DNA of 32,000 nt from Halomicrobium mukohataei DSM 12286 (GCF_000023965.1 NC_013201.1:30001-62000); one strand, 5' to 3'; shown: positions 10,663-32,000, numbered from the stretch's first letter. Notes: generated by a model from the letters alone, not told the origin. Translations and numbers: made by a program.

Positions 10663-10687
10663 GATACCGTGATATAATCCACATCGC

Positions 10688-10695
10688 AAATAAAG
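10688..10695 (-). promoter_or_regulatory. Candidate TATA box for orc1
   Basis: The minus strand reads CTTTATTT, 26-33 nt upstream of the ATG at 10662. That spacing fits a leaderless haloarchaeal transcript. Confidence 0.4.
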
Positions 10696-14640: not shown

Positions 14641-17226
14641 ATGAGTGACTCACGGGAGCCGGACCCTTCGACCGTCGAGAGCCCGAGTCGGCGGTCGCTG
14701 TCGCCCGACTCGTTCGATCACGGGGCAGTGATCGGTCGAACTCCCACGACGGTCGTCCACCGGATCGGGGTCGGCGCGGACGATCAGATCGCGGTCAAAC
14801 ACCCGGCGACCCACGGGACCCTGGGCGGTGACGTGTTCGATTCGTTTCGACGGGAGGGCAAACGGTGGGCTCAACTGGCCGACCACCCCCACATCGTCGG
14901 CGTCGTCGACTGGGGCGAGAGCCCGCTGCCGTGGCTCCACCACGACGCCGACGTGCCGTGGGTCGCGATGGAGTACATGGACGGCGGGGATCTCGGGGAG
15001 TACACGGAGGAGCTCTCCATTGAGGGCAAGCTCTGGGTCGCCGAGCGACTCGCCGACGCCGTCTGGTACGCACACCACGACGGCGGCGGCCTGATCCACC
15101 ACGATCTGAAGCCCGAGAACATCCTCTTCCGCGAAACGCCGGACGAACAGTGGGACGTGCCCAAGATCGCCGACTGGGAGCTCGCCCGGACGCTCCTGAA
15201 CCACTCCGACAGCGTCGGCGTCACCACGCCACAGTACGTCGCGCCCGAACAGGCCCACAACGAGTCGACCGACCAGCTCACCGACCAGTTCCAGCTGGGA
15301 ATCGTCCTCTACGAGCTGTTTACCGGGACCTATCCGTTCGTCGACGGTCCCGAGTCGGCACCCGAAGCGGCACTGATCACGGGCATCCTGCGGAACGATC
15401 CCGTCCCGCCCAGCGAGCGTCGACCCGTGGTGCCGTCGGCGCTGGACGACGTGGTCCTGACGATGCTGGCAAAGGACCCCGACGATCGCTACGAGGCGAT
15501 GCTCCAGGTCCGGAACGACCTGCGTGCGATCGAGCCAGGCGACGACCGCTCCGAGGAACCGGAGCCGAACCCGGCCGCTCGGAGCCGTCCTGACTCCCGT
15601 TCGGTGCCGACCCAGACGGCCGACTGGAACGGTGTCGGCGTCGGCACTGGCGTGGTCCTCGACACCACTGCTCGCGGAGCGGCGGCGATCAGGACCGACC
15701 TGGCAGACGACGGGACCTTCTACCTGAGCGATCTGGACCACGATCTCGAACCCACCCAACGGGTCTCGCTCTACTACGAGGGGGACGATCCGGGAGCGAG
15801 CGACATTATCGAGGTCCAGCCCGTCGAGAGCGACGAGGAGCCGCCCGCAGTGGGCGACAGCGAGACGTTCGGCGAGGGCGTGGTGATCGACACGACCGGC
15901 GACAGCAAGGCGGCCGTCGAGACCGACCTCGCCACCGACGGCGTGTTCTACCTCAGCGGTATCGAGGCGACCCTCCAGACCGGTGACGCGGTCGCGCTTC
16001 GCTACGAGGGATCCGATCCGACGGCGAGTGACGTCTCGCAGGTGGTGCCGATCGACGAACTCGACGCGACGGCGTCCGTCGCGGCCGACGACACCGGAGA
16101 GGGCGAACCCGCGGGGGAATCCTCCCCGGCCGGAGAGGTCGAACCCGCGGAGGAAACACCAGCCACCGACAGCGCCCGGCCGATACGAGGGAGTTGGCCG
16201 CGATCCGGGAACGATCAGGGCCGCACGCACGCAACGGACCAACAGGGTCCCGACGGTTCCGTCGACGTGCTGTGGCAGGCGGAGATCGGGAGCGGTCTCG
16301 AAGCGCCGCCGGTCGTCGCCGACGGGACCGTCTACGCCGGGTGCTCGAACGGAACGACGGTCGCACTCGACGCGGGGACGGGAACGAAACGCTGGCAGTT
16401 CGAGACGAGAAACGACGTCGTCGCCGCGCCGGTCGTCGCCGGTGAGACGCTGTATGCGGTGAGCAAGGACGCCCACGTGTACGCGATCGACCGCGAAGCG
16501 GGTACCGAGCGCTGGGCCTACGACACCGGGAGCGCGATATACGCACCACCGGTGGTGGCCAACGACCGCGTCGTCGTCACCGCACGTTCGGGCGCTGTCG
16601 CGGCGATCCACACCGAGAGCGGAACCGAAATGTGGGCCGTCGAGACGACGCCCGGCATTCGCGTTCCGGTGACCCAGTACGGCCGGCGACGGCTGCTGGT
16701 CGGTGACGACAACGGCGTGGTACACGTCCTGACGAAGGGTGGCTCCGAGCAGGCGACGATCGACATCAGTGGCCGTGGGCGCATCCGAACGCCGATCGTC
16801 GCGCCGGGAAACTCCGGAACGGTGCTGGTCGGTGACACGCTGGTCGACCTACAGCGCGAGACCGTCGTCGATACGCTCGCCCGCGGGGTCCGGTCGCTGC
16901 CCGCCGTCGACGAGGGGACGGCCTACCACGTGACCGATACGGAAGTCAGGGGCATCGAGATCTACAGCGGCGAGCAGATCGTTTCCTACGGCTTCGACGG
17001 CTCGACGAGTCGTCTCGGGACAGAAACGACACCGGCGATCGCCGACGGCATCGTGTACACGGGCCTCGGTGACGGAACGGTCGTCGCGTTCGACGGCACG
17101 ACCGGGCGGGAACGCTGGCGACGAGAGCTCGGCTCGACGGTCGCCGGGTCGCCGGTTCTCCTGGACGGACACCTCTTCGCCGCGACGCGTGACGGGACCC
17201 TCTACGCGCTCGCCGGCCAGGCGTGA
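14641..17226 (+). CDS. Ser/Thr kinase-like domain / duplicated small beta-rich domain / PQQ-like beta-propeller protein
   Basis: The kinase spans about 14700-15530 (IAVKHP, HHDLKPENILF, IADWELAR, APEQ). Two tandem domains lie at 15649-16056 (GVV.DTT...A.TDLA.DG.FYLS). PQQ/BamB-like blades span about 16264-17223 (AAPVVAGETLYAVSKDAHVYAIDREAGTERW and similar). Confidence 0.95.
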   Translation: MSDSREPDPSTVESPSRRSLSPDSFDHGAVIGRTPTTVVHRIGVGADDQIAVKHPATHGTLGGDVFDSFRREGKRWAQLADHPHIVGVVDWGESPLPWLHHDADVPWVAMEYMDGGDLGEYTEELSIEGKLWVAERLADAVWYAHHDGGGLIHHDLKPENILFRETPDEQWDVPKIADWELARTLLNHSDSVGVTTPQYVAPEQAHNESTDQLTDQFQLGIVLYELFTGTYPFVDGPESAPEAALITGILRNDPVPPSERRPVVPSALDDVVLTMLAKDPDDRYEAMLQVRNDLRAIEPGDDRSEEPEPNPAARSRPDSRSVPTQTADWNGVGVGTGVVLDTTARGAAAIRTDLADDGTFYLSDLDHDLEPTQRVSLYYEGDDPGASDIIEVQPVESDEEPPAVGDSETFGEGVVIDTTGDSKAAVETDLATDGVFYLSGIEATLQTGDAVALRYEGSDPTASDVSQVVPIDELDATASVAADDTGEGEPAGESSPAGEVEPAEETPATDSARPIRGSWPRSGNDQGRTHATDQQGPDGSVDVLWQAEIGSGLEAPPVVADGTVYAGCSNGTTVALDAGTGTKRWQFETRNDVVAAPVVAGETLYAVSKDAHVYAIDREAGTERWAYDTGSAIYAPPVVANDRVVVTARSGAVAAIHTESGTEMWAVETTPGIRVPVTQYGRRRLLVGDDNGVVHVLTKGGSEQATIDISGRGRIRTPIVAPGNSGTVLVGDTLVDLQRETVVDTLARGVRSLPAVDEGTAYHVTDTEVRGIEIYSGEQIVSYGFDGSTSRLGTETTPAIADGIVYTGLGDGTVVAFDGTTGRERWRRELGSTVAGSPVLLDGHLFAATRDGTLYALAGQA

Positions 17227-17475: not shown

Positions 17476-18402
17476 ATGACGGTCCCGGAGACGACGGCGG
17501 ACGCCGACACCGTCGGTGAACGCACGGGCGAGCAGTTCGGCGAGCTCTCGGTGCTGGCAGACACCGGGCACGAGAAGGTACCGGAAATCGAGCGCGACGA
17601 CTACCACCACCGCCAGATCGAGGGCGATCGGACGGACGTCGAGATCGTCACCCGCGCGCTGGAACTGGGGATGAACGTCGTCCTCAAGGGTCCCCCCGGC
17701 GTCGGCAAGAGCTTCCTCACGCGGTACGTCTGTGCGATGACGAACCGACCGCTGTACCGCGTGACGCTCTCGGAGACGACGTACCGCGAGGACCTGCTCG
17801 GTCACCTCCATCTCGTGAGCGGCGACGGCGGCGAAACGGTCACGGAGTGGATCGACGGGCCGCTGACCCGTGCGGTCAGGGAGGGAGCGGTCCTCCTGCT
17901 CGACGAGATCAACGCCGCCGACGCCAACACCGTCGCCGCTCTCAACGCCGTGATGGAACAGCGCGCGACCCGGTCGCTGACGATCCCACAGACGGGCGAG
18001 CAGCTCGTCCCACACGAGGAGTTTCGCGTCGTCGCGACCTCGAACCCCGGCTATCAGGGGACCTACGAGCTCAACGACGCCTTCGAGGATCGGTTTCGCC
18101 ACGTCAAGCTCTCCTATCTCCCGGAGTCGGTCGAGGTCGAACTCGTCTTCGACCGGACGGACCTCGACAGGGGGAAAGCAGCTCAGATCCGGGACCTGGT
18201 GTCGTTCGCGAGCCGACTCCGGGAGGCGTACGTCGACGGAGAGCTGTCGACGCCGGTCACGACCCGGGAGCTCGTTCGAATCGCCCGGTTCATGGAAGAC
18301 GACTTCATGACCGTCGGGGAGGCGGCCAGGAGCGAACTCGTCGCGCGCGTCGACGAGTACGACGAGTCGCTGGTCCGAACCCTCATCGACAAACGACTGT
18401 AG
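17476..18402 (+). CDS. CbbQ/NorQ-type (MoxR-superfamily, AAA_5-like) AAA+ ATPase
   Basis: Walker A is VVLKGPPGVGKS. The run WIDGPLTRAVREGAVLLLDEINAA (Walker B), TSNPGYQGTYELNDAFEDRF and the ~300-aa single-AAA size match the NorQ/CbbQ pattern. Confidence 0.93.
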   Translation: MTVPETTADADTVGERTGEQFGELSVLADTGHEKVPEIERDDYHHRQIEGDRTDVEIVTRALELGMNVVLKGPPGVGKSFLTRYVCAMTNRPLYRVTLSETTYREDLLGHLHLVSGDGGETVTEWIDGPLTRAVREGAVLLLDEINAADANTVAALNAVMEQRATRSLTIPQTGEQLVPHEEFRVVATSNPGYQGTYELNDAFEDRFRHVKLSYLPESVEVELVFDRTDLDRGKAAQIRDLVSFASRLREAYVDGELSTPVTTRELVRIARFMEDDFMTVGEAARSELVARVDEYDESLVRTLIDKRL

Positions 18403-20307
18403 ATGCGACTGACAGCACAGACCGAGCCGCCGGACCTCGCCGCCCTCTCGACGCCAGAGCGGGCCTCCAGCGAGCGCCGCCGAGAGCTCGAACGCCTCGC
18501 GTCGCTGTGTACGGACAGGGAGAGGACGATCTCGATCGCCTTCGACGAGGAGCGAGCGTTCGCTCGGCCGGCCGAGGGGGCCGGCCCGGACGCCTACGAG
18601 ATCGTGCTGCCGACGGAGAAATACGAGCAGCCCGGCACGGAGCTGCCGCCGGGGCTGTGGGATCGCTCGATCCAGGTCGCCTTTCTCTTCCACGAACTGG
18701 GCCACGTCTACTACTCCGACTTCGATCGCTTCGGCGACTGTTTAGAGCGGGTCGACGGGCGCTGGCGCGACCTGTTTCGGATGGTGTACAACACCGCCGA
18801 GGACGGCGTCGTCGAGACTCAGATCGCCAACGAGTTCTCAGTCACCGACGACTTCGTCCTCCTCAACGACGTGCTCGTCTCGCGGGCCGACGAGCGACAC
18901 CGCGCGTACGTCGACCTGTTCGACCTCGCGACCGCCGACGGCGAGCCGGTCCAGTCCTACACCGTCTTCGAAGCCCTCGCAGTCGGGCTGCTCGACCGTG
19001 GCTTCGTCGACAGCGGTCGCTTCGCCGCCATCGTCGACCCGGACGACGACCGGCGTGTCGTCTACGACGGCCAGCGGGAGGCGCTCGTCGACCTCGTCCC
19101 GGCGATGGACGAGTTCGTCGCCGACGTGCTCTCGGAGCCCGACGGCACCCGGCGGGTCGACCGGGCCCACGACTTCTTTGAGACCGCCAGAGACACCCTC
19201 GCTGGGCTCCCGCCGCGACAGAACGGTCGGCTCCAGACCGCGCCGGTCCGGCCCAGCGACGCCCGGGCCCGCGCCGGCTGGACCGCAGACGCGGCGGACC
19301 GGCTGCCCGACGACGGGGCGGCCAGCGCGCACGTCGCCCGAGATCGCGCTGCTGACGACCGGTCCGCCTCCGGAGCCAGCGGTGCGGGAAGCGTCGCCGA
19401 TCCGGACGAGGACCGGCGGCCGCCGGGCCGCGTCGAGGACGACACGGTCAGACGGGTCCGGCGACGGAGCGTGCGCGCCCAGTCGAACCGGGCGGGCTCG
19501 GGCCGGTCACCCCTCGAACGCGAGGCCCGACACCTCCTCGATGTCGTCGACGACGAGTCGACGGCTCTCGAAGAGGTGATCGTCGTCGACCCCGCCGAGG
19601 ACGGTGGCGACCGGGACCGCTGGGACGACGCGGTCGGGCGTTCGAAGCAACTCCAGCGGGACCTCTCGACGCAGCTTCGCCGCGAGCGCCGTCCCAGAGA
19701 TGAGCCTGGTCATCGCACCGGCCGACTCGACGGGCGGCGACTCGTCGGCGCGAGCCACGGGGCCCAGCGGGTCTTCACCCGCCGGGAGTCCGGGACGGCC
19801 AAAGACCACTCCTGTCTGGTCGTGCTGGACCGGTCGGGATCGATGGACGGCGAACCGATCCGGACGGCCGAGACTGCGACGGCCCAGCTCGTCCACGCGC
19901 TGTTCGCGGTCGGGGTCGACGCGTCCGTGCTGTCGATCTGGGAGGGGTATCCGTGTCTGGAACTCCCCTTCGGGGGTCGCCCGTCCGAGCACGTCGACCG
20001 GCTGATGACCGAACGTGCGGACTGGGGGACGCCGCTCTCGACGGCCGTCGCCGTCGCCCGTGAGCGCCTCGACGACGGCCGGGGATCTCACCCGTTCGTC
20101 GTCGTCGTGACCGACGGCGCGCCGGACCACCCCGACCGCTACCAGTCGCAGCTGGCGGCGTGTACCGTTCCCGTGTTCGGCGTCTACATCGGGTCGGAAC
20201 CGGGCACTCACACCGAGTACTTCGACCGGATCGTCCACGCCGAGACCGACACGCTCGCACGAACGATGCAGCGCCTCGTCAGGGCGCTGTTCTCGACGGA
20301 GGCCTGA
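18403..20307 (+). CDS. VWA-domain protein (NorD/CbbO-like partner) with an N-terminal HExxH motif
   Basis: The start ATG directly follows the upstream TAG (TAGATG at 18400-18405). The C-terminal VWA domain has the MIDAS motif VVLDRSGSMDG plus FVVVVTDGAPD. The N-terminal region has FLFHELGHVYYSDFD and a downstream NTAEDG. Confidence 0.9.
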   Translation: MRLTAQTEPPDLAALSTPERASSERRRELERLASLCTDRERTISIAFDEERAFARPAEGAGPDAYEIVLPTEKYEQPGTELPPGLWDRSIQVAFLFHELGHVYYSDFDRFGDCLERVDGRWRDLFRMVYNTAEDGVVETQIANEFSVTDDFVLLNDVLVSRADERHRAYVDLFDLATADGEPVQSYTVFEALAVGLLDRGFVDSGRFAAIVDPDDDRRVVYDGQREALVDLVPAMDEFVADVLSEPDGTRRVDRAHDFFETARDTLAGLPPRQNGRLQTAPVRPSDARARAGWTADAADRLPDDGAASAHVARDRAADDRSASGASGAGSVADPDEDRRPPGRVEDDTVRRVRRRSVRAQSNRAGSGRSPLEREARHLLDVVDDESTALEEVIVVDPAEDGGDRDRWDDAVGRSKQLQRDLSTQLRRERRPRDEPGHRTGRLDGRRLVGASHGAQRVFTRRESGTAKDHSCLVVLDRSGSMDGEPIRTAETATAQLVHALFAVGVDASVLSIWEGYPCLELPFGGRPSEHVDRLMTERADWGTPLSTAVAVARERLDDGRGSHPFVVVVTDGAPDHPDRYQSQLAACTVPVFGVYIGSEPGTHTEYFDRIVHAETDTLARTMQRLVRALFSTEA

Positions 20308-20310
20308 ACC

Positions 20311-23300
20311 GTGTTCGATCGGACGCCGCGGTCGCTCCGTGTCGGCTTCGAGACCGGACACCTCTCGGGCGAGTCGGTGATCGACCGCGCGCTCCCAGCC
20401 CTCGGTTCGGAGACGATCGCGCGGCGACGAGCAGCGCTCGCGGCGCTCGCGGCGGCCACCGACTCACGGCCCGACCGGACGACCGAAGTCGTCGACGCGG
20501 TCGAGTCGTCGATCGGACCGGGAGCGACCCCGACGCGGGCAGAGCTGGCGGCGTTGCGTGATCTGGGCTGCCGTCGGCCGCGGGCGTTCGCGCCGCTGGT
20601 CGAGACGTTCCGACGGCCCCTCACGCATGCCGGCGAATCCGCCGTCGACACCGCCGCGCTCTCGGCGCTCCTCGGTGATCTCGGCACCGCGGCTCCGGGT
20701 GTGGCAAAGCCACTGCTCGGCCCGCTGGTCGACGCGGCCGACGACGCCCACCCGGCAGTCCGAAACGAGGCCGCCTGGGCGGTCGTGCGGGTCGCGACGA
20801 GCGAACCGGCCATGCTTCGGCCCCTCGTCGCCGGCCTCGTCTGGGAGCTGGACCGCGAGAACCCGGCCACCGTCCGTGACGCGCTCGCGACGCTCGGCCG
20901 GATCGGACAGTTCCTGCCCGCCCACCTCGCGGGACTGGACGCGATCGCGTCGCTGCTCGACCACCCGTCCCCGGACGTTCGGACCGCCGCGATCGAGGCC
21001 CTCGGGGAGACGGCGGGACGCGGTACGAAGTTCGACACCGGCGTCTCAGCACCGGCCCGCGTCGAGCCCTTTCTGGACACCGTTGCCGAGCGCGCGACCG
21101 ACCCGGAGCCACAGGTCCGGGCAGCGGCCCTCAAGACGCTGGGACGGGTAGCTCGCCACGAGCCACGCCTGGCTGGGACGTACACCCAGCGGTTCCTGGC
21201 CGCGACCGACGACGACGACCGCCGCGTTCGGCACACGGCCCTCAACGCGATCGGTGACACGTTCGATCCGTCGACGATCGATCTCGCGCGCTTCCAGCGA
21301 CGGGTGGTACCCCGGCTGACCGACGGAGACGACGACGTTCTGGGTGCCGCCGTCGGGGTGCTCCTGACGGCCGTCCGGGCACTGCGCTCGGACCACCCCG
21401 GACGGGCACGGTATCTCGTCGATCTGCTCGTGTGGTTCCAGCTGTCGCCCCACAGCGGGCTGGGCGTTCCGGATCCACTCGACGAACTGGGCTCGGAACT
21501 GGCCGCACTCGCCGATCTCGACCGGTATCTGGAAGTCACGCGCACGCTCCGAGACGCCGACGACGACTCGCTGCGCCACGCGGGCGTTTCGATCTGCGAC
21601 GCGATCGCGCGCCACGCCGACAGCCATCGGCTCGCGGCCGTCGGCGTCCTCCAGTCGATGCTCGCCGACGAGGACGAGCACGTGCGGCGGCGCGTCCTGT
21701 CTGTCTTCGAACGACTCGCCGAGATCGAACCGACCCTGTGCTCGCTGCTCGGGCGGATTGCCTGGCCCGTGGCCGCCTACGATCCCGCGGTGCGACCCCA
21801 GGCCGTGTCGGTGCTCGCAGCCACCGGACAGACCGACGCCAAGCACCACACCGGACCGGTCGCCGTGCAGTGTCGCGTCCTCCGGGACCGCCGGGACGCC
21901 GAGGACGAGGGCGACGGGATGGATATTCTCGATCCGGACCCGGCGTCCGAACCGCTCCAGCGACTCGCCGAGGCCGCGCCGGAGGCCGTCACCGAGGCGG
22001 CACCGACGCTGGTCGAGTTCCTCGGCGACGACGAGTGTGACGCGCTCGTCGCCGAGGCCCTCGCTACTGCCGTCGCCGAGGGTGGCCGACTCACGACGGC
22101 GACCGTTCGGCGTCTCGAAGCCGTCGTCCAGTCGGACCCGGTCGCGCCGCCGCTGCTCGCGTGGCTCTCGACGCTCCTTCTCCTCGACGGCGACGAGGCA
22201 GCGCGCAGACGGGCACGCGACCGCCTCCACTCCCTGGCCGAGCGACGCGAAGAGACGCCGCTGCTCGCGTGTCTGTCCGTGCTCGTCGACCACGAGCCGA
22301 CCGTCGTCGCCGAGGTGCTCGGCTCCTGTCCGCCCGGCGAGACGCTCTCGGAGTCGCGCGCCCGGCGACTGGCGAGGCTCGTCACCGCTCACCCGCGACT
22401 CCTGTTGCGCTGTCGGACCGGCTGGTCGCCGTTCCCCGAGAGCGCACGCGAGCGCGAGCGCCCCGGACGGACGGCGTGGCCGACGGCGCTGGCCGAGACG
22501 GCTCCCCAGACCGTCTCGGCGACTGACTGGCTCGCAGAGCGGTTCTGGACCGACGACGGCGAACTGACCGCGTCCCTGCTCGAAACGATGGGCCGCGCGG
22601 ACTCGCTCCCGGGCGGTCCCGACGATGCGTGGCGACACCACCCCAGTCCCGCGGTCAGAGACGCCGCCTGCGCGCTGCTGGACGGTGACCCAGACACAGA
22701 CGGGGACGCCGAGCGGGGCGCTTCGACGGTCGACCCGGCAGCGGCCACGGCCGACACCGTCGACGAGATCGCGTCCCGCCTCGCCGCGGCGTCTCGCGAC
22801 CGCTGTCGCCGCGCCTGCGAGCGTCTGGTCTCGATCGCCGTCCACGCTCCCTCCCTGCGTCCGACCGTCCGTCAGCAGCTCCTCGCCAGTACCCCCACGC
22901 TCCGGGAGACGGCCTCGCCCGTCGCCGTCCTCGGCGCGCTGTCGACGCTCGCTCCCCGCGTCGAGACCCCCTCTGAGCGGACGGCCTCCTCGGCTCCACC
23001 GGCAGAGAGCGTCGGGGCGTTGCTCTGTCGGTACGCGTCCGCGCCGTCGCCCGGCGTCCGCGACGTTGCACTGTCCGCGTTGCGTGTCGGGGCGACGGAC
23101 GAGCCGGCGGCGCTCGCGGACGTGGTGATCGAGCGACTGCGCGACCCGTCCGACGCTGTTCGCGCCCAGGCCGCCCACACGGCCGCCACGCTGGTCGGAG
23201 ACTCCCTGCGCGTCTCCTCGCCCCTCGTCGACGCGCTCTGTGACGCGGTCGACGGCCCTCGATACGTCGCGCTCGCGGCCTGTCGCGCGCTGGGTCACTG

Positions 23301-24768
23301 CGGAGCGATCGAGCCGTCGGTCACGGACCGCGTGGTCGCGGCGTTGACGACGCACCTTCGCGCACGCGAGCGCGGCGTCAGGCGCTCGGCCGCCGGTGGG
23401 CTCGCCCGAATCGGTCACGCCGATCCGGCTGCGCTCGTCCCGGTCGCCGACACGCTGTGTGACCGGATCCGGACCGACAGCGTGACGCGGCCCGCTCTGT
23501 TGTCCGTGGTGACGATCCTGGTGACGGAGTGCTCGGTGGCACTCGACTCACTCGTCGAGCCGTCGCTGACGGCCCTCGTCTCCGACACCTCTCCGACCGT
23601 CACCCGTGCCGCCGGTCGCTTGCTCGCCGCCGTCGCCGAGGACGCGCCCGGCACCGTTCACGGACGGCTCCACCCCGTCGGCGAGCGCCTCCACGAGGAG
23701 TACGACGGCGAGATCGTCACCAACTTCCGGGACATCGCTCCCAGCCCGCTGTCGACGTACTGGCTCTTTCGGGTCGTCGCCACCTGCGCGCGGGCCAACC
23801 ACACGATCACGGAGTCGTTCGCGTGGGCGCTGTCCGAGACCGTCGACTTTCTCACCTCGCCCGCGGCGGCCTCGCCCCACTACGACCTCCCGCGCGACAG
23901 CGTCACCACGGACGGACTGGCGACGGTGACCGCGCGAGCGGCGGGGCTCGGCGGCGACTCGTCCTACGAGACGATCCTCGAATCGTGGCCGGGCGATCCG
24001 ACGAAACCGTCCCTGGAGCCGGCGGTGACCGCGCAGTTTCTCGTCCTCGTCGACGACCAGACGCGGGACCGCTCGTTCGAACACATCGAGAATCACGTCG
24101 CGCCCGCCGACCGCGACGACGTTCTGGCGGCACTGCTTTCCCAGTCGGTCAACCTGAACCGCTACGAGGCCGTCTTCGCGTCGCTCACCCGGCTCCTCCC
24201 GCTGAGCGACGACGAGGGGCTGCACCGCCGCGGCGTCGCGACGCTGCTCGACGCCTGCGAGGCCCACAACTGGGCGGTTCGCGTCGACGCCATCGAGGCG
24301 ATCGCGACGCTCGGAACCACCGCGGTGCTCCCGGCCGACGAGGCGATCGGTCACCTGCTGGGACGGCCCGGGCGGGAACCGCGAACGCACGAGGCGATCG
24401 TCGACGCGGTCCTCGACCTGCTGGGCCACGCCGAACGCACGCCCGAGACGGTAGCCACCGCGATGGCCGTCCGGTACGAACGCGGCGGACCAGCGCGTCG
24501 CCGACTCGCCGTCTGGCTGCTCGGGCGACTGGCGACGCGCCACGCGACGGTCCGCTCGCGAGCGGTGGCGACCCTGCTCGCGGCGCTGTCGGACTCGGAC
24601 CGCTGGGCGAGAGAACGGGCCGGCGAGGACCTGGCCGCGATCGCGGCGATCGATCCGGAGCCACTCGCCGCCCACCGCGAGCGACTCGAACGTCGGGTAA
24701 CGCGGGCCGACGGCGAGGTGGCGGATGACCTCCGGACGTGTCTCTCCGAACTGGACGACCCGAGGTAA
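20311..24768 (+). CDS. Giant (1485 aa) HEAT/ARM-repeat protein
   Basis: A GTG start lies 3 nt after the VWA stop. HEAT-type helices carrying the characteristic D/N-x-x-VR recur along the whole length. Examples are HPAVRNEAAWAV, SPDVRTAAIEALG, EPQVRAAALKTLG, DRRVRHTALNAIG, SPGVRDVALSAL, SDAVRAQAAHTA, ERGVRRSAAGGL, NWAVRVDAIEAI and DRWARERAGEDL. Confidence 0.85.
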   Translation: MFDRTPRSLRVGFETGHLSGESVIDRALPALGSETIARRRAALAALAAATDSRPDRTTEVVDAVESSIGPGATPTRAELAALRDLGCRRPRAFAPLVETFRRPLTHAGESAVDTAALSALLGDLGTAAPGVAKPLLGPLVDAADDAHPAVRNEAAWAVVRVATSEPAMLRPLVAGLVWELDRENPATVRDALATLGRIGQFLPAHLAGLDAIASLLDHPSPDVRTAAIEALGETAGRGTKFDTGVSAPARVEPFLDTVAERATDPEPQVRAAALKTLGRVARHEPRLAGTYTQRFLAATDDDDRRVRHTALNAIGDTFDPSTIDLARFQRRVVPRLTDGDDDVLGAAVGVLLTAVRALRSDHPGRARYLVDLLVWFQLSPHSGLGVPDPLDELGSELAALADLDRYLEVTRTLRDADDDSLRHAGVSICDAIARHADSHRLAAVGVLQSMLADEDEHVRRRVLSVFERLAEIEPTLCSLLGRIAWPVAAYDPAVRPQAVSVLAATGQTDAKHHTGPVAVQCRVLRDRRDAEDEGDGMDILDPDPASEPLQRLAEAAPEAVTEAAPTLVEFLGDDECDALVAEALATAVAEGGRLTTATVRRLEAVVQSDPVAPPLLAWLSTLLLLDGDEAARRRARDRLHSLAERREETPLLACLSVLVDHEPTVVAEVLGSCPPGETLSESRARRLARLVTAHPRLLLRCRTGWSPFPESARERERPGRTAWPTALAETAPQTVSATDWLAERFWTDDGELTASLLETMGRADSLPGGPDDAWRHHPSPAVRDAACALLDGDPDTDGDAERGASTVDPAAATADTVDEIASRLAAASRDRCRRACERLVSIAVHAPSLRPTVRQQLLASTPTLRETASPVAVLGALSTLAPRVETPSERTASSAPPAESVGALLCRYASAPSPGVRDVALSALRVGATDEPAALADVVIERLRDPSDAVRAQAAHTAATLVGDSLRVSSPLVDALCDAVDGPRYVALAACRALGHCGAIEPSVTDRVVAALTTHLRARERGVRRSAAGGLARIGHADPAALVPVADTLCDRIRTDSVTRPALLSVVTILVTECSVALDSLVEPSLTALVSDTSPTVTRAAGRLLAAVAEDAPGTVHGRLHPVGERLHEEYDGEIVTNFRDIAPSPLSTYWLFRVVATCARANHTITESFAWALSETVDFLTSPAAASPHYDLPRDSVTTDGLATVTARAAGLGGDSSYETILESWPGDPTKPSLEPAVTAQFLVLVDDQTRDRSFEHIENHVAPADRDDVLAALLSQSVNLNRYEAVFASLTRLLPLSDDEGLHRRGVATLLDACEAHNWAVRVDAIEAIATLGTTAVLPADEAIGHLLGRPGREPRTHEAIVDAVLDLLGHAERTPETVATAMAVRYERGGPARRRLAVWLLGRLATRHATVRSRAVATLLAALSDSDRWARERAGEDLAAIAAIDPEPLAAHRERLERRVTRADGEVADDLRTCLSELDDPR

Positions 24769-26215: not shown

Positions 26216-28261
26216 TCAGATCACCCTGTTCTGGAGCCGATCCCTGTGTTTGGCGTTGTACAGGAGCTTGACCCGGTCCGACGCGGGCGTCCCGATGCAG
26301 GTGAGGACCACGTCCTCCTGTTCGACCTCCTCGTCGGAGAGGATCTGTTGCAGCTCCATGTCGATCTCGCCTTCGACGACGACGGCCGCGCAGTTCGTAC
26401 ACGCCCCGGCACGACAGGAGGAGGGCCAATCGAGCCCCGCCGCCTCGGCGGCCTCGAGGACGTATTCGTCTCGCTCGACCTCGATCGTCCCGTAGTCCTC
26501 CGGCGGAAGATCGCTCGTGGCGGCCCGCGTGAACGCCTCTCCGTCTCGTGGGTCCCACCCTCGATCTGCGACGACTTCGTCGTTCAGGTACTCGACGGTC
26601 GCCGTCCGCGAGGACGACGCGGTCGAACCCCGGTCGCTCGATCGCTCCACTGCACCCCGCGAGCCCGTGAGGTGGTAGCCGCCGTTGGGGTCCGAGCGAT
26701 ACGCCACCCGGCCGTCGTCTTTCAGGTCGTCGAGGGCGTCGAGGACGGCTCCACGGCTCGCGTCGAGCGCTCGGCCCAACTCGGCGCTCGAAACCGGCGT
26801 GGTGCCCCGTCGCGATCGGTCCCTGATCGCCTCGTACACCGCCTCGGCCCCGATGCTCGACGCTCTGTGCTGGGACCCGCCGGTCTCTCGATCGCCGCTC
26901 TGGTCGGCCCTCGACACGTCGACCTCGGTCCCCCTCGCGCGCTCGACCCCGCGCCGGGTCGGCCTGTAGCCGGAGGGTCCGTCGGAGGTGTACTCGACCA
27001 GGTTCGCCTGCTTGAGTTCGTCGAGCCGATCCAGCACCGACTGTCGCCCGGCCTCGACGTGCTCTGCTATCGTCTCGCTGGACACCGTCCGCTCCCCGCT
27101 GTCGGTGAGTTCGTCGACGACTGCGAGCAGATACTCCGTCGATACGGTGTCTGTCGGTTCTGCTTGGTGCTCTGCCGTCTGCTCGTTCCGTCCCGAGTCG
27201 CTCGTCTGCTGGGTGTGGCTGTGCTGTGATTCGCTGGACTGCCCGGCCTCGTGGCGCACTCTCTCGCCGGCATCGACCGGGTCGTCGACCCGCTCTGCGA
27301 TGATCGTCGGCAGCCGTCCACCGCTCCGGACGGCGCGTAGCGCTCGCTCGAACAACTGGACGCTCTCGTATCGCGACCGCTTCTCGGTCTCCAGTGCCGT
27401 CAGCACGACCGCGTCGATGGCCTCGGTCACGTCGTCGCGGTAGTCGCTGGGCGGCGTCGGCGGGTCTCCGTAGACGATGTCGTGCATGATCCCGGTCTGA
27501 CTCCCGGTGTAGGGCGGTTCGCCGGTGAGCAGCGCGTAGACGATCGCACCGGCCTGATACACGTCCGTCAGCGTGTCGGGATCGCCGAACTCGTCGGACT
27601 CGAACTGTTCGGGCGCGGCGTACGCCACCGACAGTCCGTCCATCGTTCCGGTCTGCTCCGAGAGGACCCGAGACAGCCCCCAGTCGCCGATCTTGGGGAG
27701 GTCCCACGTCCCGGCGGCCGTCTCGCGAAAGAGGACGTTCGCCGGTTTGAGATCGAGGTGAACGATCCCGTAGGCGTGGGCGACGGCCAGGCCCCGGCAG
27801 AGACATTCGCCGATCCAGAGCGCGTGGGTCAGTTCCAGTCCGCCGTCGCTCGCGTCGAGGCGATCGGCGAGCGTGCCACCGCCCATGTACTCGATGGCGA
27901 TCCAGGGCAGCCGGTCGCCGATGTCGACGACGCCGACGATGTGGTCCGAATCCGTCCAGCGCTGCTTGTTCCGTTCCCGACCGTCGACCGTCTCCCAGCG
28001 CTTGGCTTCGCTGAGAAACCGTTCGATCGCGTCGCCGGTGAGCGTCCCGGCTCGGGGTGGCTCCTTGAGTGCGATTCTGTCCGGTGGCTCCTCGTCGGTG
28101 ACCCGTCCCTCGTACACGACGGCCTGTCCCCCTCGACCGATCGGCTCGTCGCTGGTCTCGATGTGCTCGTATCGCAGCGATCGACGCGGGGGACTGGTGA
28201 CAGCTTCGATGTCGGGTGGGTTCCGATCGCTCATCGTCTCTGCTGTCTGGCCGGATCTCAT
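26216..28261 (-). CDS. Ser/Thr kinase / two winged-helix domains / full-length halophile-type [2Fe-2S] ferredoxin fusion
   Basis: The kinase spans about 27360-28200 ([38 protein letters not shown]). wHTH-like segments lie at about 26950-27140 and 26664-26840. The ferredoxin at 26219-26602 reads [16 protein letters not shown]...[82 protein letters not shown]. This is near-collinear with my recollection of the Halobacterium ferredoxin, including its N-terminal extension. Confidence 0.9.
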
Positions 28262-28347: not shown

Positions 28348-29004
28348 ATGCGTGCAACGATCCGTGCGGCCGATCCCGAGTCGACGGCGTCTCTCTCCGT
28401 CACAGACGAGTCGGCTGTACGCGTCTACCGCGTCCCCGAGCGCGGAGAGGCGGTCGTCGCCGACAAGGACGGGTCCGTCACCTCGCTGGGCGTCCACGAC
28501 ATCTCCGTGTCCCGCGAGTTCGACGACGACGGCGAGCCCGGATACATCGAGTTCTACAAGGAGGACAGCCAGCTGTACGTCCAGGACGCGGGTTCGAGCA
28601 GCGAGACGGTACAGCAAAACGCCTTCGGCGAGATCGACCTCTCCGACGGCGAGCCCTCGCTGATCACCGGCGACTGTACGGTACAGATCGGCTACAGTAC
28701 GGCACTCGAAGTCGAGGTCGAGCAGTCCCGTGGGAACGACCGTCCGATCCCGTACAAGGCCGACCTCGTGCTCAAGATCTGCGATGTCAGGTCGACCAAC
28801 GAGGTCAAGAGCGAACTGCGAGAGCTCAAAGAGATGATGCACGCGGCCGACATCTCGGACGAGCGGTACCGCAACGTCCTCGCCGACGTGGAGACGGCCT
28901 TCGAAAACGTCGAGAACACGAGAGGCGACGAGCTACCGACCGAGGCCGTCCAGAAAGTCTCCAGTGCGACCAAACGGGCTCGCAACTACTTCCTCAGTTC
29001 CTGA
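28348..29004 (+). CDS. Hypothetical protein: divergent FHA-like beta-sandwich plus helical C-terminal half
   Basis: Spacing is FHA-like: ISVSREF corresponds to VSR.HA, LYVQDAGSSSETV to the D.GS.NGT region, and LITGDCTVQIG to L..GD.I.IG. The canonical GR and the His and Asn are not conserved. ATG 28348 is preferred over TTG 28324. Confidence 0.6.
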   Translation: MRATIRAADPESTASLSVTDESAVRVYRVPERGEAVVADKDGSVTSLGVHDISVSREFDDDGEPGYIEFYKEDSQLYVQDAGSSSETVQQNAFGEIDLSDGEPSLITGDCTVQIGYSTALEVEVEQSRGNDRPIPYKADLVLKICDVRSTNEVKSELRELKEMMHAADISDERYRNVLADVETAFENVENTRGDELPTEAVQKVSSATKRARNYFLSS

Positions 29005-29007
29005 TAC

Positions 29008-29079
29008 TGCCGGCTGTACCTTCGTTTCGACATTCGCCACCTCGGGGTGGCGAAATCCGTGACAGATGTACAGCCGGTA
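29008..29079. terminator. Nested hairpin between convergent genes
   Basis: The outer stem is CCGGCTGTAC (29010-29019) pairing with GTACAGCCGG (29068-29077). The inner stem is TTCGCCACC (29033-29041) pairing with GGTGGCGAA (29046-29054), closed by a 4-nt loop. Confidence 0.4.
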
Positions 29080-29161: not shown

Positions 29162-30400
29162 TCACGCCCCGGAGCCAAACTCCCGATCCCACTCGTCGAA
29201 GCGCCGCACGCTCTCCTCGGAGAGCGAGGCCGAGGTGCGTTCGAACGCCACCTGCACGTCCTGTGGCCGGACGGCGTCGACCGAGAGGTCGTACTCTCTG
29301 ACGGCGTCGAAGCCACGGTCGGCGACGGACGCCAGTCCCGTGTTCGACCGGTTGATCATGGCGTTGACCGCGGTCCGACACACCGCCTCCACGTCACTGC
29401 CGGTGAAATCGCGGTGGATACACTCGCTTGCGATCGCCTCGACGGGCGTGTCGACGCGTCGACCAGTGTCCGACAGCTGGAACGCCGATGGACTCCCCTC
29501 GAAGGTAATCCCGCCTTCGACGGTGTTGATCGCGACGATCTCCTCGGCCGCGCCCACGTCGGGCAGCGGGATCAGCACCCGTCGCGGGAAGCGACGACGG
29601 ATCGCCTGATCGAGGTCCCACGGGGTGTTTGTCGAGCCCAGGACCATCACGAAACTATCGTCGTTCTTGTCGATCCCGTCCAGCTCCGACAGCAGCGTGT
29701 TCAACACGCGGCGAGACGTTTCGTCCAGGTCGGACTCGCGTGACTGTGTCAGCGCGTCGATCTCGTCGAGGAAGACGATACTCGGGCTCATCTCCTCGGC
29801 GAGATCGAACAGCGCGGTGATCTGCTTGCTCGTCTCGCCGAAGTACTTCGAGAGCAGCCCTCCGAGCTTGACGTCGAAGAACGTCGCGTCGAGCGAGCCG
29901 GCGACCGCAGACGCCAGCAGCGTCTTCCCGGTTCCCGGCGGGCCGAACAGGAGGACGCGATCGGTCGCGGCGACGGCGTCGGGCTTGTCGTCGATGCCGC
30001 CCAGCGTGATCGTCCGCTTCAACTCGCCTTTGACCTCGTCGAGGCCCCCGATGTCGTCCCACGTGACCTCCGTCTGGGAGATGAACGATTCGACTTGCTC
30101 ACGAAAGTCCGACTCCGGCTGTTCGGCGTCCTCTGCCCCGCCGTCGCGGTTCTCGCCGATGTCCTCTTCGGAGAGGGCCTCGCCGCTCTTTAGCTTCGAG
30201 ATCGACGACTCCAGTTGCTCTTTGCGGTCCGGATACGTCGTTTCCCGGATCGTTTCGAGCTCTTCCAACCGATCGAGAGACTGTGAGAACGCTTTCGCGG
30301 CCTTCTCGTGGTTCTCCTGATCGAGGTGTGACTTCCCCTTCTTGAGGTACTCTTCGTACTGTTCCTGTAGGATGTCCTCTTTGTACTGTCCGAGATCCAT
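29162..30400 (-). CDS. Vps4/CdvC-like AAA ATPase with an N-terminal MIT-like helical domain
   Basis: The N-terminal segment (YEEYLKKGKSHLDQENHEKAAKAFSQSLDRLEEL) looks like a three-helix MIT domain. Walker A is LLFGPPGTGKT and Walker B is IVFLDEIDAL. STNTPWDLDQAIRRRF is typical of the meiotic/Vps4 clade. The C-terminal SEESVRRFDEWDREFG resembles the Vps4 C-terminal helix. Confidence 0.85.
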   Translation of the reverse strand: MDLGQYKEDILQEQYEEYLKKGKSHLDQENHEKAAKAFSQSLDRLEELETIRETTYPDRKEQLESSISKLKSGEALSEEDIGENRDGGAEDAEQPESDFREQVESFISQTEVTWDDIGGLDEVKGELKRTITLGGIDDKPDAVAATDRVLLFGPPGTGKTLLASAVAGSLDATFFDVKLGGLLSKYFGETSKQITALFDLAEEMSPSIVFLDEIDALTQSRESDLDETSRRVLNTLLSELDGIDKNDDSFVMVLGSTNTPWDLDQAIRRRFPRRVLIPLPDVGAAEEIVAINTVEGGITFEGSPSAFQLSDTGRRVDTPVEAIASECIHRDFTGSDVEAVCRTAVNAMINRSNTGLASVADRGFDAVREYDLSVDAVRPQDVQVAFERTSASLSEESVRRFDEWDREFGSGA

Positions 30401-30436
30401 AGTTACAAAATTGGGTGACGGGACGCGGTGAGCGCG

Positions 30437-31081
30437 TTAGCGGCCCAGCTCCTCGTTGAAGATGTTCTCACTCTCGTCTTCTTCTTTCGTGAGCTCGCTC
30501 AGCGAGACCGGGTCCTCGTTGGCGTCCTGGAACAGCGTGTCGATCTCCGACTCCTCCATCGTCGCCCCGAAGTCCTGCGAGACGCTGGTGAGGGTCCGGT
30601 TGAGCTGATCGCCCTTGCGCTGGATCCACTCCGTGTCCTTGTTGCGCTTCTCGATCTCGCGGACGATGTCGTTCATGAACTCCTGTACGTCTTCCTCGCT
30701 CATGTCCCGGAGCGACGACTGGGGCTGCTCTTCGAGCCGCTTCTTGGCGTTTTTGGCAGCCAGCAGGGTGGTGTACTCTTCCAGCATCTCCTGCCACGCG
30801 GCTTCCTTGTTCTCGTAGTCCCGCTTGAGCTGCTTGGCCTTTCGCTTCAGTCGCTCTTTTTTAGGTCCGGCGACCTTTCGCCCCTTCTCGACCAGTTGCT
30901 CGAACTGGTGATCGAGCCGTTCGAGCTCCTGTTCTTTCAGCTCGATCTGCGTCTCGAAGGTTCGTGCTTCGAGGTCGAGTTCGTCGGCGTCTTTCTCCAT
31001 GAGTTCGTTCGAACTGCCGCCCCAGCTACCTGGTATCCAGTCTCTGAACTGAACCATATACGAGTACATGGTAGGCACCAT
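30437..31081 (-). CDS. Snf7/ESCRT-III-superfamily-like coiled-coil protein
   Basis: A basic helical hairpin (KKERLKRKAKQLKRDYENKEAAWQEMLEEYTTLLAAKNAKKRLE) is followed by an acidic helical tail (MSEEDVQEFMNDIVREIEKRNKD...EIDTLFQDANE). This polarity is typical of Snf7. A TATA-like TTTTATTA abuts the first ATG, so the true start may be MVQFRDW at 31057. Confidence 0.6.
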   Translation of the reverse strand: MVPTMYSYMVQFRDWIPGSWGGSSNELMEKDADELDLEARTFETQIELKEQELERLDHQFEQLVEKGRKVAGPKKERLKRKAKQLKRDYENKEAAWQEMLEEYTTLLAAKNAKKRLEEQPQSSLRDMSEEDVQEFMNDIVREIEKRNKDTEWIQRKGDQLNRTLTSVSQDFGATMEESEIDTLFQDANEDPVSLSELTKEEDESENIFNEELGR

Positions 31082-31136
31082 AATAAAACTTTGGCACTAA
31101 ACCCACTCTACTGGATCTCCATATTGGAGAAAGCTG

Positions 31137-31805
31137 CTACGAAAACTCGACGGTCTCGTCGTCGCCGTCTTCGCTCAGTACGTCGGATTCCGTTTCGATG
31201 TTCCCCACCTCTGTGGGCTCTTCGCTCACTTCTTCGTCGGTCTCGGATGTGTCGTCGCTCCACTCCTCTTCGAGTTCGGAGCCGGTGTGGAGCTGGCTCG
31301 CGCCCTCACTGAACGAGTCCAGTGCGTTCGAAGAGAGCGTATCCGTCTGACCGAGCACGTCGTGTAGCTCCTCGTTTTTCATCTCCTCTTGCTGGAACAG
31401 TCGGACCAGTTCGCTCTGGTCCATCTCCCGGAGCTGGCTCCAGTAGTCGTCGCCCCGGCTCTCGCCGATCTCCTTGATGTTCGCCAGGTTCGAGGCCAGA
31501 TTCCGCTGTTTGCTCGTCTCGTCGATCCGCCCTCTTACGGTTTCGAGCTCTTCTTTGATCTCTTCTGCGTCGCGAAGGAAGTCCTGTGCTCGCTCTTCGT
31601 TACCGGCTTCCTTCGCCGACTCGTACTTCGAGCGCTTGTCATCGAGCGCTTCTTTCAGCTCCTCTCGGCGACTCTTGAGATCGTCTAGCTTCCGTTCGGC
31701 TTCCTGTCGCTTGACCTGATGGTCCTCCTTCGGACGATCGAGCAGGTGGCCGTCGTCACTGTCGCCAAACAGTGAGCCGAACCACGACTTCACGGTAGCA
31801 AACAT
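31137..31805 (-). CDS. Snf7/ESCRT-III-superfamily-like coiled-coil protein (paralog-like)
   Basis: The N-terminus MFATVKSWFGSLFG resembles that of the neighbouring gene (VQFRDWIPGSWGG). A long charged coiled coil is followed by a very acidic tail. The gene is first in a same-strand three-gene cluster ending with the Vps4-like ATPase. Confidence 0.55.
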   Translation of the reverse strand: MFATVKSWFGSLFGDSDDGHLLDRPKEDHQVKRQEAERKLDDLKSRREELKEALDDKRSKYESAKEAGNEERAQDFLRDAEEIKEELETVRGRIDETSKQRNLASNLANIKEIGESRGDDYWSQLREMDQSELVRLFQQEEMKNEELHDVLGQTDTLSSNALDSFSEGASQLHTGSELEEEWSDDTSETDEEVSEEPTEVGNIETESDVLSEDGDDETVEFS

Positions 31806-31830: not shown

Positions 31831-31836
31831 ATAAAT
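31831..31836 (-). promoter_or_regulatory. Candidate TATA box of the Snf7-like/Vps4-like operon
   Basis: The minus strand reads ATTTAT, 26-31 nt upstream of the ATG at 31805. That spacing fits a leaderless transcript. Confidence 0.4.
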
Positions 31837-32000
31837 GTGCGTGCAAGTAGCTATCACGCGATGACGGCCGTCTCGGAGACGGCGGCCCGGGGCTCTTCGC
31901 ACAGCGCGCGAGCTGCCCGACTCCCGGGTCGACTCCGCGACGGACGCCGCCGTCTGTCCCGGAGTGTGACATCGACGGTACGCTGCTGGCGCGATCACCG

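Follow-up and report, generated by a model that had tools for sequence, protein, structure and literature searches.

A cluster of three same-strand genes on the megaplasmid pHmuk01 of Halomicrobium mukohataei DSM 12286 raises the question of whether a haloarchaeal plasmid encodes an ESCRT-like system and, if so, what such a system would do in an organism that divides with FtsZ. We analysed 32,000 nucleotides (nt) of this plasmid (NC_013201.1, 221,862 bp). This whole stretch is called the window below; its coordinates are those of NC_013201.1 minus 30000, and it is 100 % identical to the plasmid of H. mukohataei JP60. An earlier note on this DNA had described three same-strand genes with gaps of 36 and 55 nt, and open reading frames (ORFs) were found on the minus strand at exactly those positions. 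Gene A (31137-31805; Hmuk_3260, WP_012807437, C7P4W5, arCOG07402) encodes 222 amino acids (aa), gene B, from its longest start (30437-31081; Hmuk_3259, C7P4W4, arCOG07402), 214 aa, and the ATPase gene (29162-30400; Hmuk_3258, WP_012807435, C7P4W3, arCOG01307) 412 aa, the longest ORFs being separated by 55 nt (A-B) and 36 nt (B-ATPase). Ser/Thr kinase genes flank the trio, as had also been said. The note had missed the FHA/CdvA-like gene at 28348-29004 (plus strand, convergent to the ATPase gene; Hmuk_3257, WP_012807434; 218 aa, published assignment arCOG13166), the gene by which the Halo_FHA clade is marked. We consider it probable that the locus is the core of a Halo_FHA-type archaeal ESCRT-like system; what we observed is the order of the genes, similarity at the level of domains and folds, a conserved neighbourhood and boxes that resemble promoters.

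Judged by its scores and motifs, the ATPase is a Vps4-family enzyme of the meiotic clade and not of Cdc48/PAN type. Pfam finds one AAA cassette (PF00004, E 3.8e-40, residues 149-279), with Walker A GPPGTGKT at 153-160, the pore loop KYFG at 185-188, Walker B LDEID at 211-215 and, in the second region of homology, AIRRRF at 266-271 (NTPWDLDQAIRRRF, ending at 271). The diagnostic pattern of the meiotic clade is (A/L)xRRF without Pro-Gly, as opposed to RPGRFD in Cdc48, PAN and FtsH. AIRRRF is without the Pro-Gly of the Cdc48/PAN/FtsH type, and opposite the 'pg' of VAT the HMMER alignment has a two-residue gap. When the single sequence was searched against the PDB sequences, yeast Vps4 reached 164.6 bits in one stretch and VAT-D2 127.4 bits; yeast Vps4 is the best single-domain match, and Cdc48/VAT entries head this search solely because both of their AAA domains match. 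A family profile built from 39 members gave 256.5 bits for Vps4, 251 for katanin and 209 for VAT-D2. It aligned in a single collinear stretch, profile positions 27-421 to residues 22-434 of the 437 of yeast Vps4, a span that starts within the MIT domain and reaches the C-terminal helix. The description of a Vps4-like protein with a single AAA cassette was therefore borne out by the scores, by AIRRRF and by the full-length collinearity, and by the scores the ATPase is nearer to Vps4 than to any single domain of Cdc48 or PAN, the types with which the note had contrasted it, or of FtsH.

The NCBIfam scores of the ATPase do not discriminate (CDC48 160.7, PAN 146.3, CdvC 145.6 bits). The CdvC equivalog (NF041006) was not reached, with 145.6 bits against a cut-off of 650, and the ATPase is, as far as its sequence goes, a relative of CdvC and not its orthologue. 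Its layout is a helical, MIT-like N-terminus (about residues 1-75), an acidic linker, the AAA cassette and a Vps4_C-like terminal helix (about 375-411) with FDEWDREFGSG at 401-411. Alignments reach into the N-domain, that of Vps4 from residue 22 and that of the CdvC model from position 27, and an MIT fold of this domain is likely. On the ATPase itself Vps4_C (PF09336) stays below threshold (E 0.057, 13.9 versus 21.3 bits; model 27-61, the terminal segment), and the same family is carried by many full-length relatives of 37-50 % identity (Methanosarcinales, Thermococci and others). WP_012807435 also belongs to the sequence set of the published Vps4 tree (Makarova et al. 2024, PMC10936438), in which Halobacterium salinarum is represented by a Vps4 homologue as well.

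The proteins A and B had been placed with ESCRT-III/Snf7 or the related PspA/Vipp1, and this kinship is supported by their helical architecture, by an enrichment among their fold matches, by sub-threshold matches of distant relatives and by arCOG07402. In the AlphaFold2 (AF2) model, protein A has helices at 26-67, 70-117, 119-127 and 130-172 (core pLDDT 83-96), which form an alpha1-alpha2 hairpin (26-117) and further helices up to residue 172, and then a disordered acidic tail (173-222) with a conserved LEEEWS and a C-terminal DExhExS. Protein B has helices at 32-69, 73-118 and 129-171 followed by a disordered acidic tail, and the hairpins of both models measure about 42 + 48 residues. The N-terminus of B is rich in Trp, its hairpin tip is basic (GRKVAGPKKERLKRKAKQLKR), and its tail carries the conserved motifs DFGxTxEExEIDxLF and SLSxLT and a terminal hydrophobic motif. 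The claimed polarity of basic hairpin and acidic tail was upheld for the tails, whose net charge is -22 in A and -13 in B; the hairpins are neutral to slightly acidic (-4 in A, -2 in B), and a clear K/R patch is present in B only (residues 61-86 in the 214-aa numbering). The N-terminus of A, SWFGSLFG, is hydrophobic and of moderate amphipathicity, with a mean hydrophobicity of 0.48 and a hydrophobic moment of 0.33, and (L/I/W)FG is conserved at the N-terminus of most distant members of the A family. With its ...SLFG, A recalls the LFG-type motif by which CHMP/Snf7 proteins insert their N-termini into membrane, a resemblance that we take as a lead only.

In Foldseek searches against the PDB, ESCRT-III/Vipp1 chains made up 22 of the 50 top matches for A and 20 of the 50 for B (CHMP2A/3, CHMP3, CHMP1B, IST1 copolymers, Snf7, Shrub, Loki CHMP4-7, Asgard ESCRT-IIIB, CdvB2 and Vipp1). 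A control search of the viral library returned only mixed unrelated coiled coils with E-values in the same range. For these models the value of the comparison lies only in the ESCRT-III enrichment and in no single match. A broadened profile of A, searched against the PDB sequences, gave weak matches to CdvB (E 0.34) and to the core of Snf7 (E 2), each of them aligned collinearly on the hairpin. The distant member P0036 matched Snf7 at E 0.0054 (residues 29-103 to model 3-77, sub-threshold), and the A-like protein of the metagenome locus L005 matched PspA_IM30 (E 2e-4, its top Pfam match) and Snf7 (E 0.0047), both below threshold, on the hairpin and in the correct register; the PspA_IM30 score of a distant A homologue was 21.5 bits against a Pfam cut-off of 33.9.

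A first comparison of the A and B profiles, made before broadening, found no relationship (probability 0.8 %). With broadened alignments, hhalign matched the two families at E 2.8e-4 (probability 41 %) over 153 collinear columns; among these are the Trp at the N-terminus, the loop of the hairpin and an LR(D/E)M..E(L/V)..F motif common to both families. Because of this collinear match A and B are probably distant paralogues, in line with their shared arCOG07402. Both families are narrow, with about 16 clusters each among 5.8 billion proteins; an exhaustive HMMER profile search for family A returned 9 representatives among 1.84 billion and no bridge to annotated Snf7 or PspA, and a pattern scan of genome contigs for A found H. 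katesii only. Scans of A and B against Pfam, NCBIfam, PADLOC and PHROGs gave coiled-coil family noise only. A GpsB/DivIVA-like match of B (E 0.002-0.003) was lost with a broader profile and was rejected as spurious. The near-threshold match of B to DUF4085 (22.9 versus 24.1 bits, in 13 of 17 members) explains one RefSeq name and is uninformative on function.

The neighbourhood of the trio is conserved as well. The FHA-like gene adjoins the module in all close loci (L002-L005), which come from H. katesii, Halarchaeum sp. CBA1220 and two metagenome contigs. A joint set made up of A, B, Vps4, the FHA-like gene, PP2C, arCOG09748/08177 and the HEAT-kinase recurs in Halarchaeum and in the two metagenome contigs, and further Ser/Thr kinases are conserved with the module too. 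PP2C, a 689-aa protein with an ESCRT-II-like winged-helix (wH) domain (arCOG09748) and a 180-aa protein (arCOG08177) are conserved in L004, in L005 and on the plasmid, the two arCOG identities being those of Table S2 of Makarova et al. 2024 (PMC10936438). The gene at 11675-14500 (minus strand, 941 aa), which encodes a HEAT/adaptin-N-like solenoid and a C-terminal Ser/Thr kinase (Adaptin_N 44.5 bits, cut-off 37), has kept its association with the module in Halarchaeum (L002) and L005. The helical C-terminal part of the 218-aa FHA-like protein has a faint similarity to the C-terminal domain of Vps28 (E 0.06-0.14), and the CdvA similarity of this protein was not recovered at the HMMER level.

On the plasmid itself, PP2C, arCOG09748/08177 and Hmuk_3270, a third, B-like ESCRT-III paralogue, lie outside the window and are split from the trio by a molybdopterin-oxidoreductase operon. 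Since the ESCRT-like genes are contiguous in the metagenome locus L004, this operon looks like an insertion in Halomicrobium. It is opened by TorD at window position 31995 (L001 22996-29137: TorD, NrfD/PsrC, DsrO-like and catalytic subunit). Gene order varies among the relatives: at 2391-3513 of L004 a second short FHA-like gene (119 aa) is followed by a B-like gene (202 aa), and at 9271-12009 of L005 the order is B-Vps4-A and not A-B-Vps4. By these arrangements, the module is rearranged and partly duplicated among relatives. Each related locus has a coiled-coil gene of 200-260 aa directly 5' of the ATPase gene, with the exception of the Thermococci locus, where the two upstream genes are weakly winged helix-turn-helix (wHTH; TrmB-type) and AbiEii-like and where kinases and PP2C are again present. 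Beside the distant Vps4-like ATPases of Haloarchaeobius and of the metagenome loci L008 and L009, the gene directly 5' is one of 200-220 aa with no significant Pfam match; Pfam recognised no Snf7-positive genes beside the more distant Vps4-like ATPases, and this stepping-stone approach failed. In every complete genome seen, the module lies on a megaplasmid of 200-420 kb. These genomes are H. mukohataei DSM 12286 and JP60, Halomicrobium spp. LC1Hm, IBSBa and KBTZ05, and Halarchaeum sp. CBA1220 (megaplasmid records NC_013201.1, NZ_CP039376.1, NZ_CP044130.1 and NZ_CP054709.1, and the IBSBa and KBTZ05 plasmids); the draft scaffold of H. katesii is ambiguous.

The module had been presented as new, and in this the note was mistaken: the locus is already known. 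The Vps4 phylogeny of Makarova et al. 2024 (mBio, PMC10936438) defines the Halo_FHA clade by Vps4, ESCRT-III and the FHA/CdvA-like arCOG13166, with arCOG09748, arCOG08177, kinases and phosphatases in some of its loci. Table S2 of that paper gives, for NC_013201.1, 58348..59004 as arCOG13166, 59162..60400 as Vps4 (arCOG01307), and 60437..61081 and 61137..61805 as ESCRT-III/Snf7 (arCOG07402); the third ESCRT-III paralogue, PP2C, arCOG09748 and arCOG08177 are given further along the plasmid. Between that clade and the present locus there is no structural difference; it is the same system. Protein B (Hmuk_3259, C7P4W4) was the euryarchaeal ESCRT-III query of Liu et al. 2021, who credit the first report of such homologues to a 2010 paper. 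The locus is thus a typical example that already serves as a reference sequence in the field, and we regard the note as a correct rediscovery of a catalogued module. Its description as essentially uncharacterised holds for experiment and does not hold for comparative genomics. Public annotation makes the error an easy one, because the names in RefSeq and UniProt are inconsistent ('hypothetical', 'ATP-binding protein', 'DUF4085 family', 'Atg14 domain-containing', '26S protease regulatory subunit') and Pfam does not recognise the proteins, so that a reader of sequence alone easily takes them as new. Our additions are a corrected start of gene B with its own TATA box, the test of A-B paralogy, the finding that the subfamilies of A and B are narrow, the consistent megaplasmid location, and the observation that profiles at the HMMER level do not recover FHA, MIT or Snf7. 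Euryarchaeal systems of this kind bear on the evolution of ESCRT before eukaryotes and on the role of Vps4/ESCRT-III in organisms that divide with FtsZ.

Several results weigh against a Halo_FHA-type ESCRT-like system. Neither A, B nor their 32 close members matched Snf7 (PF03357) or PspA_IM30 (PF04012) at E-values up to 10; sub-threshold matches came from distant relatives only. Profile searches of A and B against the PDB sequences gave no significant ESCRT-III match. The best Foldseek E-values were 0.24 (A) and 0.35 (B) at template-modelling (TM) scores of 0.2-0.6, none of them significant, the long helical hairpin is a shape that is common and arises by convergence, and the model of B has low confidence (mean pLDDT 59). 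Pfam MIT did not match the N-terminus of the ATPase, where only weak TPR matches at residues 16-43 were seen, and the conserved motifs in the tails of A and B include no canonical MIM1 or MIM2, by the consensus as generally known. An FHA domain in the 218-aa protein was recovered neither with the single sequence nor with a 5-member profile nor by Pfam scans of each member. In the FHA-like alignment the conserved Ser-Arg is kept and the canonical Gly-Arg reads Gly-Val/Ile; because of this replacement, phosphothreonine binding by the protein is not assured. Full-text literature searches found no experimental study of the Halo_FHA clade. With no Pfam match above threshold and Foldseek E-values of at least 0.24, the ESCRT-III assignment of A and B is not statistically secure by this analysis alone. 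We nevertheless hold membership of A in the ESCRT-III superfamily to be quite probable and that of B somewhat less so, and both more probable with the published assignments, by arCOG and at the HHpred level, taken into account.

The first alternative lies within the same superfamily. In a PspA/Vipp1-like system for membrane-stress repair, A and B would coat and stabilise damaged membrane and the ATPase would recycle them, the fold being shared and the job another. The top Pfam match of the A homologue in L005, PspA_IM30 ahead of Snf7, agrees with this, as do the Vipp1 structures among the fold matches, the helical hairpin and the hydrophobic, moderately amphipathic N-terminal segment of A (0.48 and 0.33 by the measures above), which is like helix alpha0 of PspA. 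Every PspA score is, however, sub-threshold, and the module is conserved with an ESCRT-II-like wH protein (arCOG09748) and with CdvA-like components. To our knowledge, PspA systems (PF04012) do not normally have a Vps4-type MIT-AAA ATPase as a partner; the partner here is a Vps4-type ATPase, and PspB/C and PspF-like partners were not seen in the window or in the related loci. Liu et al. 2021 place the euryarchaeal ESCRT-III-like proteins near the PspA/ESCRT-III divide, which counts in favour of this alternative. On balance we think a PspA/Vipp1-like repair system unlikely.

The second alternative does without membrane remodelling. Here the ATPase would be an effector or segregase in phospho-signalling or defence, the coiled-coil proteins its adaptors or substrates, and the likeness to ESCRT-III convergent. 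The surroundings are such as this would lead one to look for: the locus lies in an accessory region of a megaplasmid with many Ser/Thr kinases and PP2C nearby and a MoxR-vWA pair next door, PADLOC models for PD-T4-6 and mad6 match the adjacent kinase and those for IetA the ATPase, and A and B have no significant sequence link to Snf7 or PspA. The IetA matches, however, are limited to the generic AAA core and the protease IetS is absent, whereas the collinearity of the ATPase with full-length Vps4 includes the N- and C-terminal extensions. In addition, outside Halomicrobium the module is not accompanied by the MoxR, vWA and 1485-aa HEAT genes, and the ESCRT-III enrichment was specific to the PDB search and was not reproduced as generic noise. 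We find a signalling or defence role of this kind quite unlikely. The IetAS anti-phage system itself was rejected as an identification of the locus, with an IetA match on the AAA core at 143-353 only (PADLOC 123 bits; NCBIfam 113 versus 510) and no protease partner in the locus.

A Cdv-like machinery that divides the cell beside FtsZ or in its place is very improbable: arCOG07402 is labelled 'predicted cell division protein' and the C-terminus of the FHA protein is weakly CdvA-like (HHpred probability 53; PMC10936438), but the module is rare (about 16 clusters in 5.8 billion; family A 9 in 1.84 billion) and plasmid-borne, the ATPase misses the CdvC cut-off by far (145.6 versus 650 bits), A and B are without the C-terminal wH domain typical of CdvB, and Makarova et al. 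2024 hold complex euryarchaeal ESCRT systems beside FtsZ to be non-divisional. With CdvABC of the Thermoproteota (TACK) the module shares a Vps4-family ATPase, ESCRT-III-like proteins and, by the published comparison, an adaptor with a weakly CdvA-like helical domain; it differs from CdvABC by these same ATPase scores and by A and B, no PRC-barrel CdvA was seen, and it is patchy and plasmid-borne where CdvABC is core.

The Halo_FHA-type ESCRT-like system, which we prefer to these alternatives, is most readily compared with eukaryotic and Asgard ESCRT-III and Vps4. Alike are the single AAA cassette of the ATPase, RRRF, the C-terminal helix and the end-to-end collinearity with yeast Vps4, the helical hairpin core and disordered acidic tail of A and B, and the position of their genes before Vps4. 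Unlike those systems, the module is without a Pfam Snf7 or MIT match above threshold and without a recognisable MIM1/MIM2, and it shows no ubiquitin link, with FHA, Ser/Thr kinases and PP2C in its place. We infer polymerisation, an interaction of MIT domain and tails, phospho-control and a cellular role along the following lines. A and B, as divergent subunits of the ESCRT-III superfamily, would attach to membrane by the hairpin and their hydrophobic N-termini and would form joint filaments by co-polymerisation. The Vps4-family hexameric unfoldase would dock its MIT-like N-domain on short conserved motifs that both proteins carry in their acidic tails, and would extract subunits; in this way the filaments would be turned over and the membrane deformed or cut. 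The FHA/CdvA-like protein, the flanking Ser/Thr kinases and PP2C might make assembly or the selection of cargo dependent on phosphorylation, and the proteins of arCOG09748 (wH, ESCRT-II-like) and arCOG08177 would be further conserved components.

Because haloarchaea divide with FtsZ and the module is patchy and plasmid-borne, its role is likely accessory, in vesicle budding, protein sorting or membrane repair, and not in cytokinesis. Makarova et al. (PMC10936438) likewise proposed, since the hosts have an FtsZ machinery, that Halo_FHA-type systems sort phosphorylated proteins or form vesicles and do not divide cells. The presence of the module on a megaplasmid of 200-420 kb in every complete genome seen suggests a more specific reading, to which we would give a slim chance, namely a plasmid-encoded, phosphorylation-gated budding machine that packs cargo, possibly the plasmid itself, into extracellular vesicles. 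If this were true, the phospho-marks set by the kinases and read by the FHA adaptor would be the counterpart of ubiquitin in eukaryotic ESCRT sorting.

The module also has promoter-like boxes of its own. A TATA-like box before the first gene, at the expected distance, had been claimed, and ATTTAT is present on the minus strand at 31831-31836, 26-31 nt 5' of the ATG of gene A; its position fits a leaderless haloarchaeal transcript. A second box, TTTTAT (31083-31088, minus strand), lies about 28 nt 5' of an ATG of gene B at 31057. WTTTAT occurs in only 4 copies on both strands of the window, 2 of the 3 minus-strand copies lie about 28 nt 5' of the starts of module genes, and the chance of TTTAWW in such an 11-nt slot is about 1e-3. 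Given this rarity and placement, the promoter-like signal of the module is, on these counts, not due to chance. Most homologues of gene B begin at MVQFRDW, and the current RefSeq record (WP_126967198; 30437-31057, minus strand) uses the same start at 31057. Together with the TTTTAT box upstream, this suggests that the true start is probably ATG 31057, which gives a protein of 206 aa, and that the older annotation (Hmuk_3259/C7P4W4, from 31081) was mis-started. With this start the gap between A and B is 79 nt. Gene B probably has its own promoter, which suggests a separate leaderless B-ATPase transcript, and the ATPase gene is probably co-transcribed with B because the gap of 36 nt is too small for a promoter. 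A spacer of 157 nt separates the ATPase gene from the convergent FHA-like gene and contains a 9-bp GC-rich inverted repeat, read from the sequence at 29033-29054 with no strand assigned (TTCGCCACC-CCGA-GGTGGCGAA, 4-nt loop). It is without an adjacent T-run and may be a bidirectional terminator hairpin.

Next to the FHA-like gene, the minus-strand ORF at 26216-28261 (681 aa) encodes, by Pfam and NCBIfam matches, a Ser/Thr kinase fused to a pair of wHTH domains and to a ferredoxin of the 2Fe-2S type. The ORF is intact, and its ferredoxin part is of the haloarchaeal type NF041393 (178 bits). In the RefSeq annotation of JP60 only the ferredoxin part is annotated and 1.7 kb are left blank, and the counterpart in H. 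katesii is split over two frames. The product may be a redox-sensing kinase, or the gene may be decaying; it is a candidate for the regulatory kinase of the neighbourhood. The HEAT/adaptin-N kinase gene at 11675-14500 and the gene at 14641-17226 (plus strand, 861 aa; Ser/Thr kinase with a C-terminal PQQ beta-propeller) are divergently transcribed, and a gene similar to the latter is present in L004. Between these kinases and the ferredoxin-kinase ORF, an operon-like array on the plus strand (17476-24768) has genes for an AAA ATPase of the MoxR type (308 aa), for a vWA protein (634 aa) and for a HEAT-repeat protein (1485 aa). The array resembles the 'ternary' MoxR-vWA systems (bpMoxR 25.3 bits, cut-off 27); as it is not conserved with the module outside Halomicrobium, it was rejected as a part of the system. 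Near the start of the window, positions 7-1857 hold the C-terminal 616 aa of a 1158-aa gene annotated 'GrpE'. After it, the region up to about 9300 has a lower GC content (0.55-0.60 versus 0.65-0.74 elsewhere), few long ORFs and an AbrB/PIN toxin-antitoxin pair, and an orc1/cdc6 gene follows at about 9319-10689. From this composition, the start of the window looks like a patchwork accessory region.

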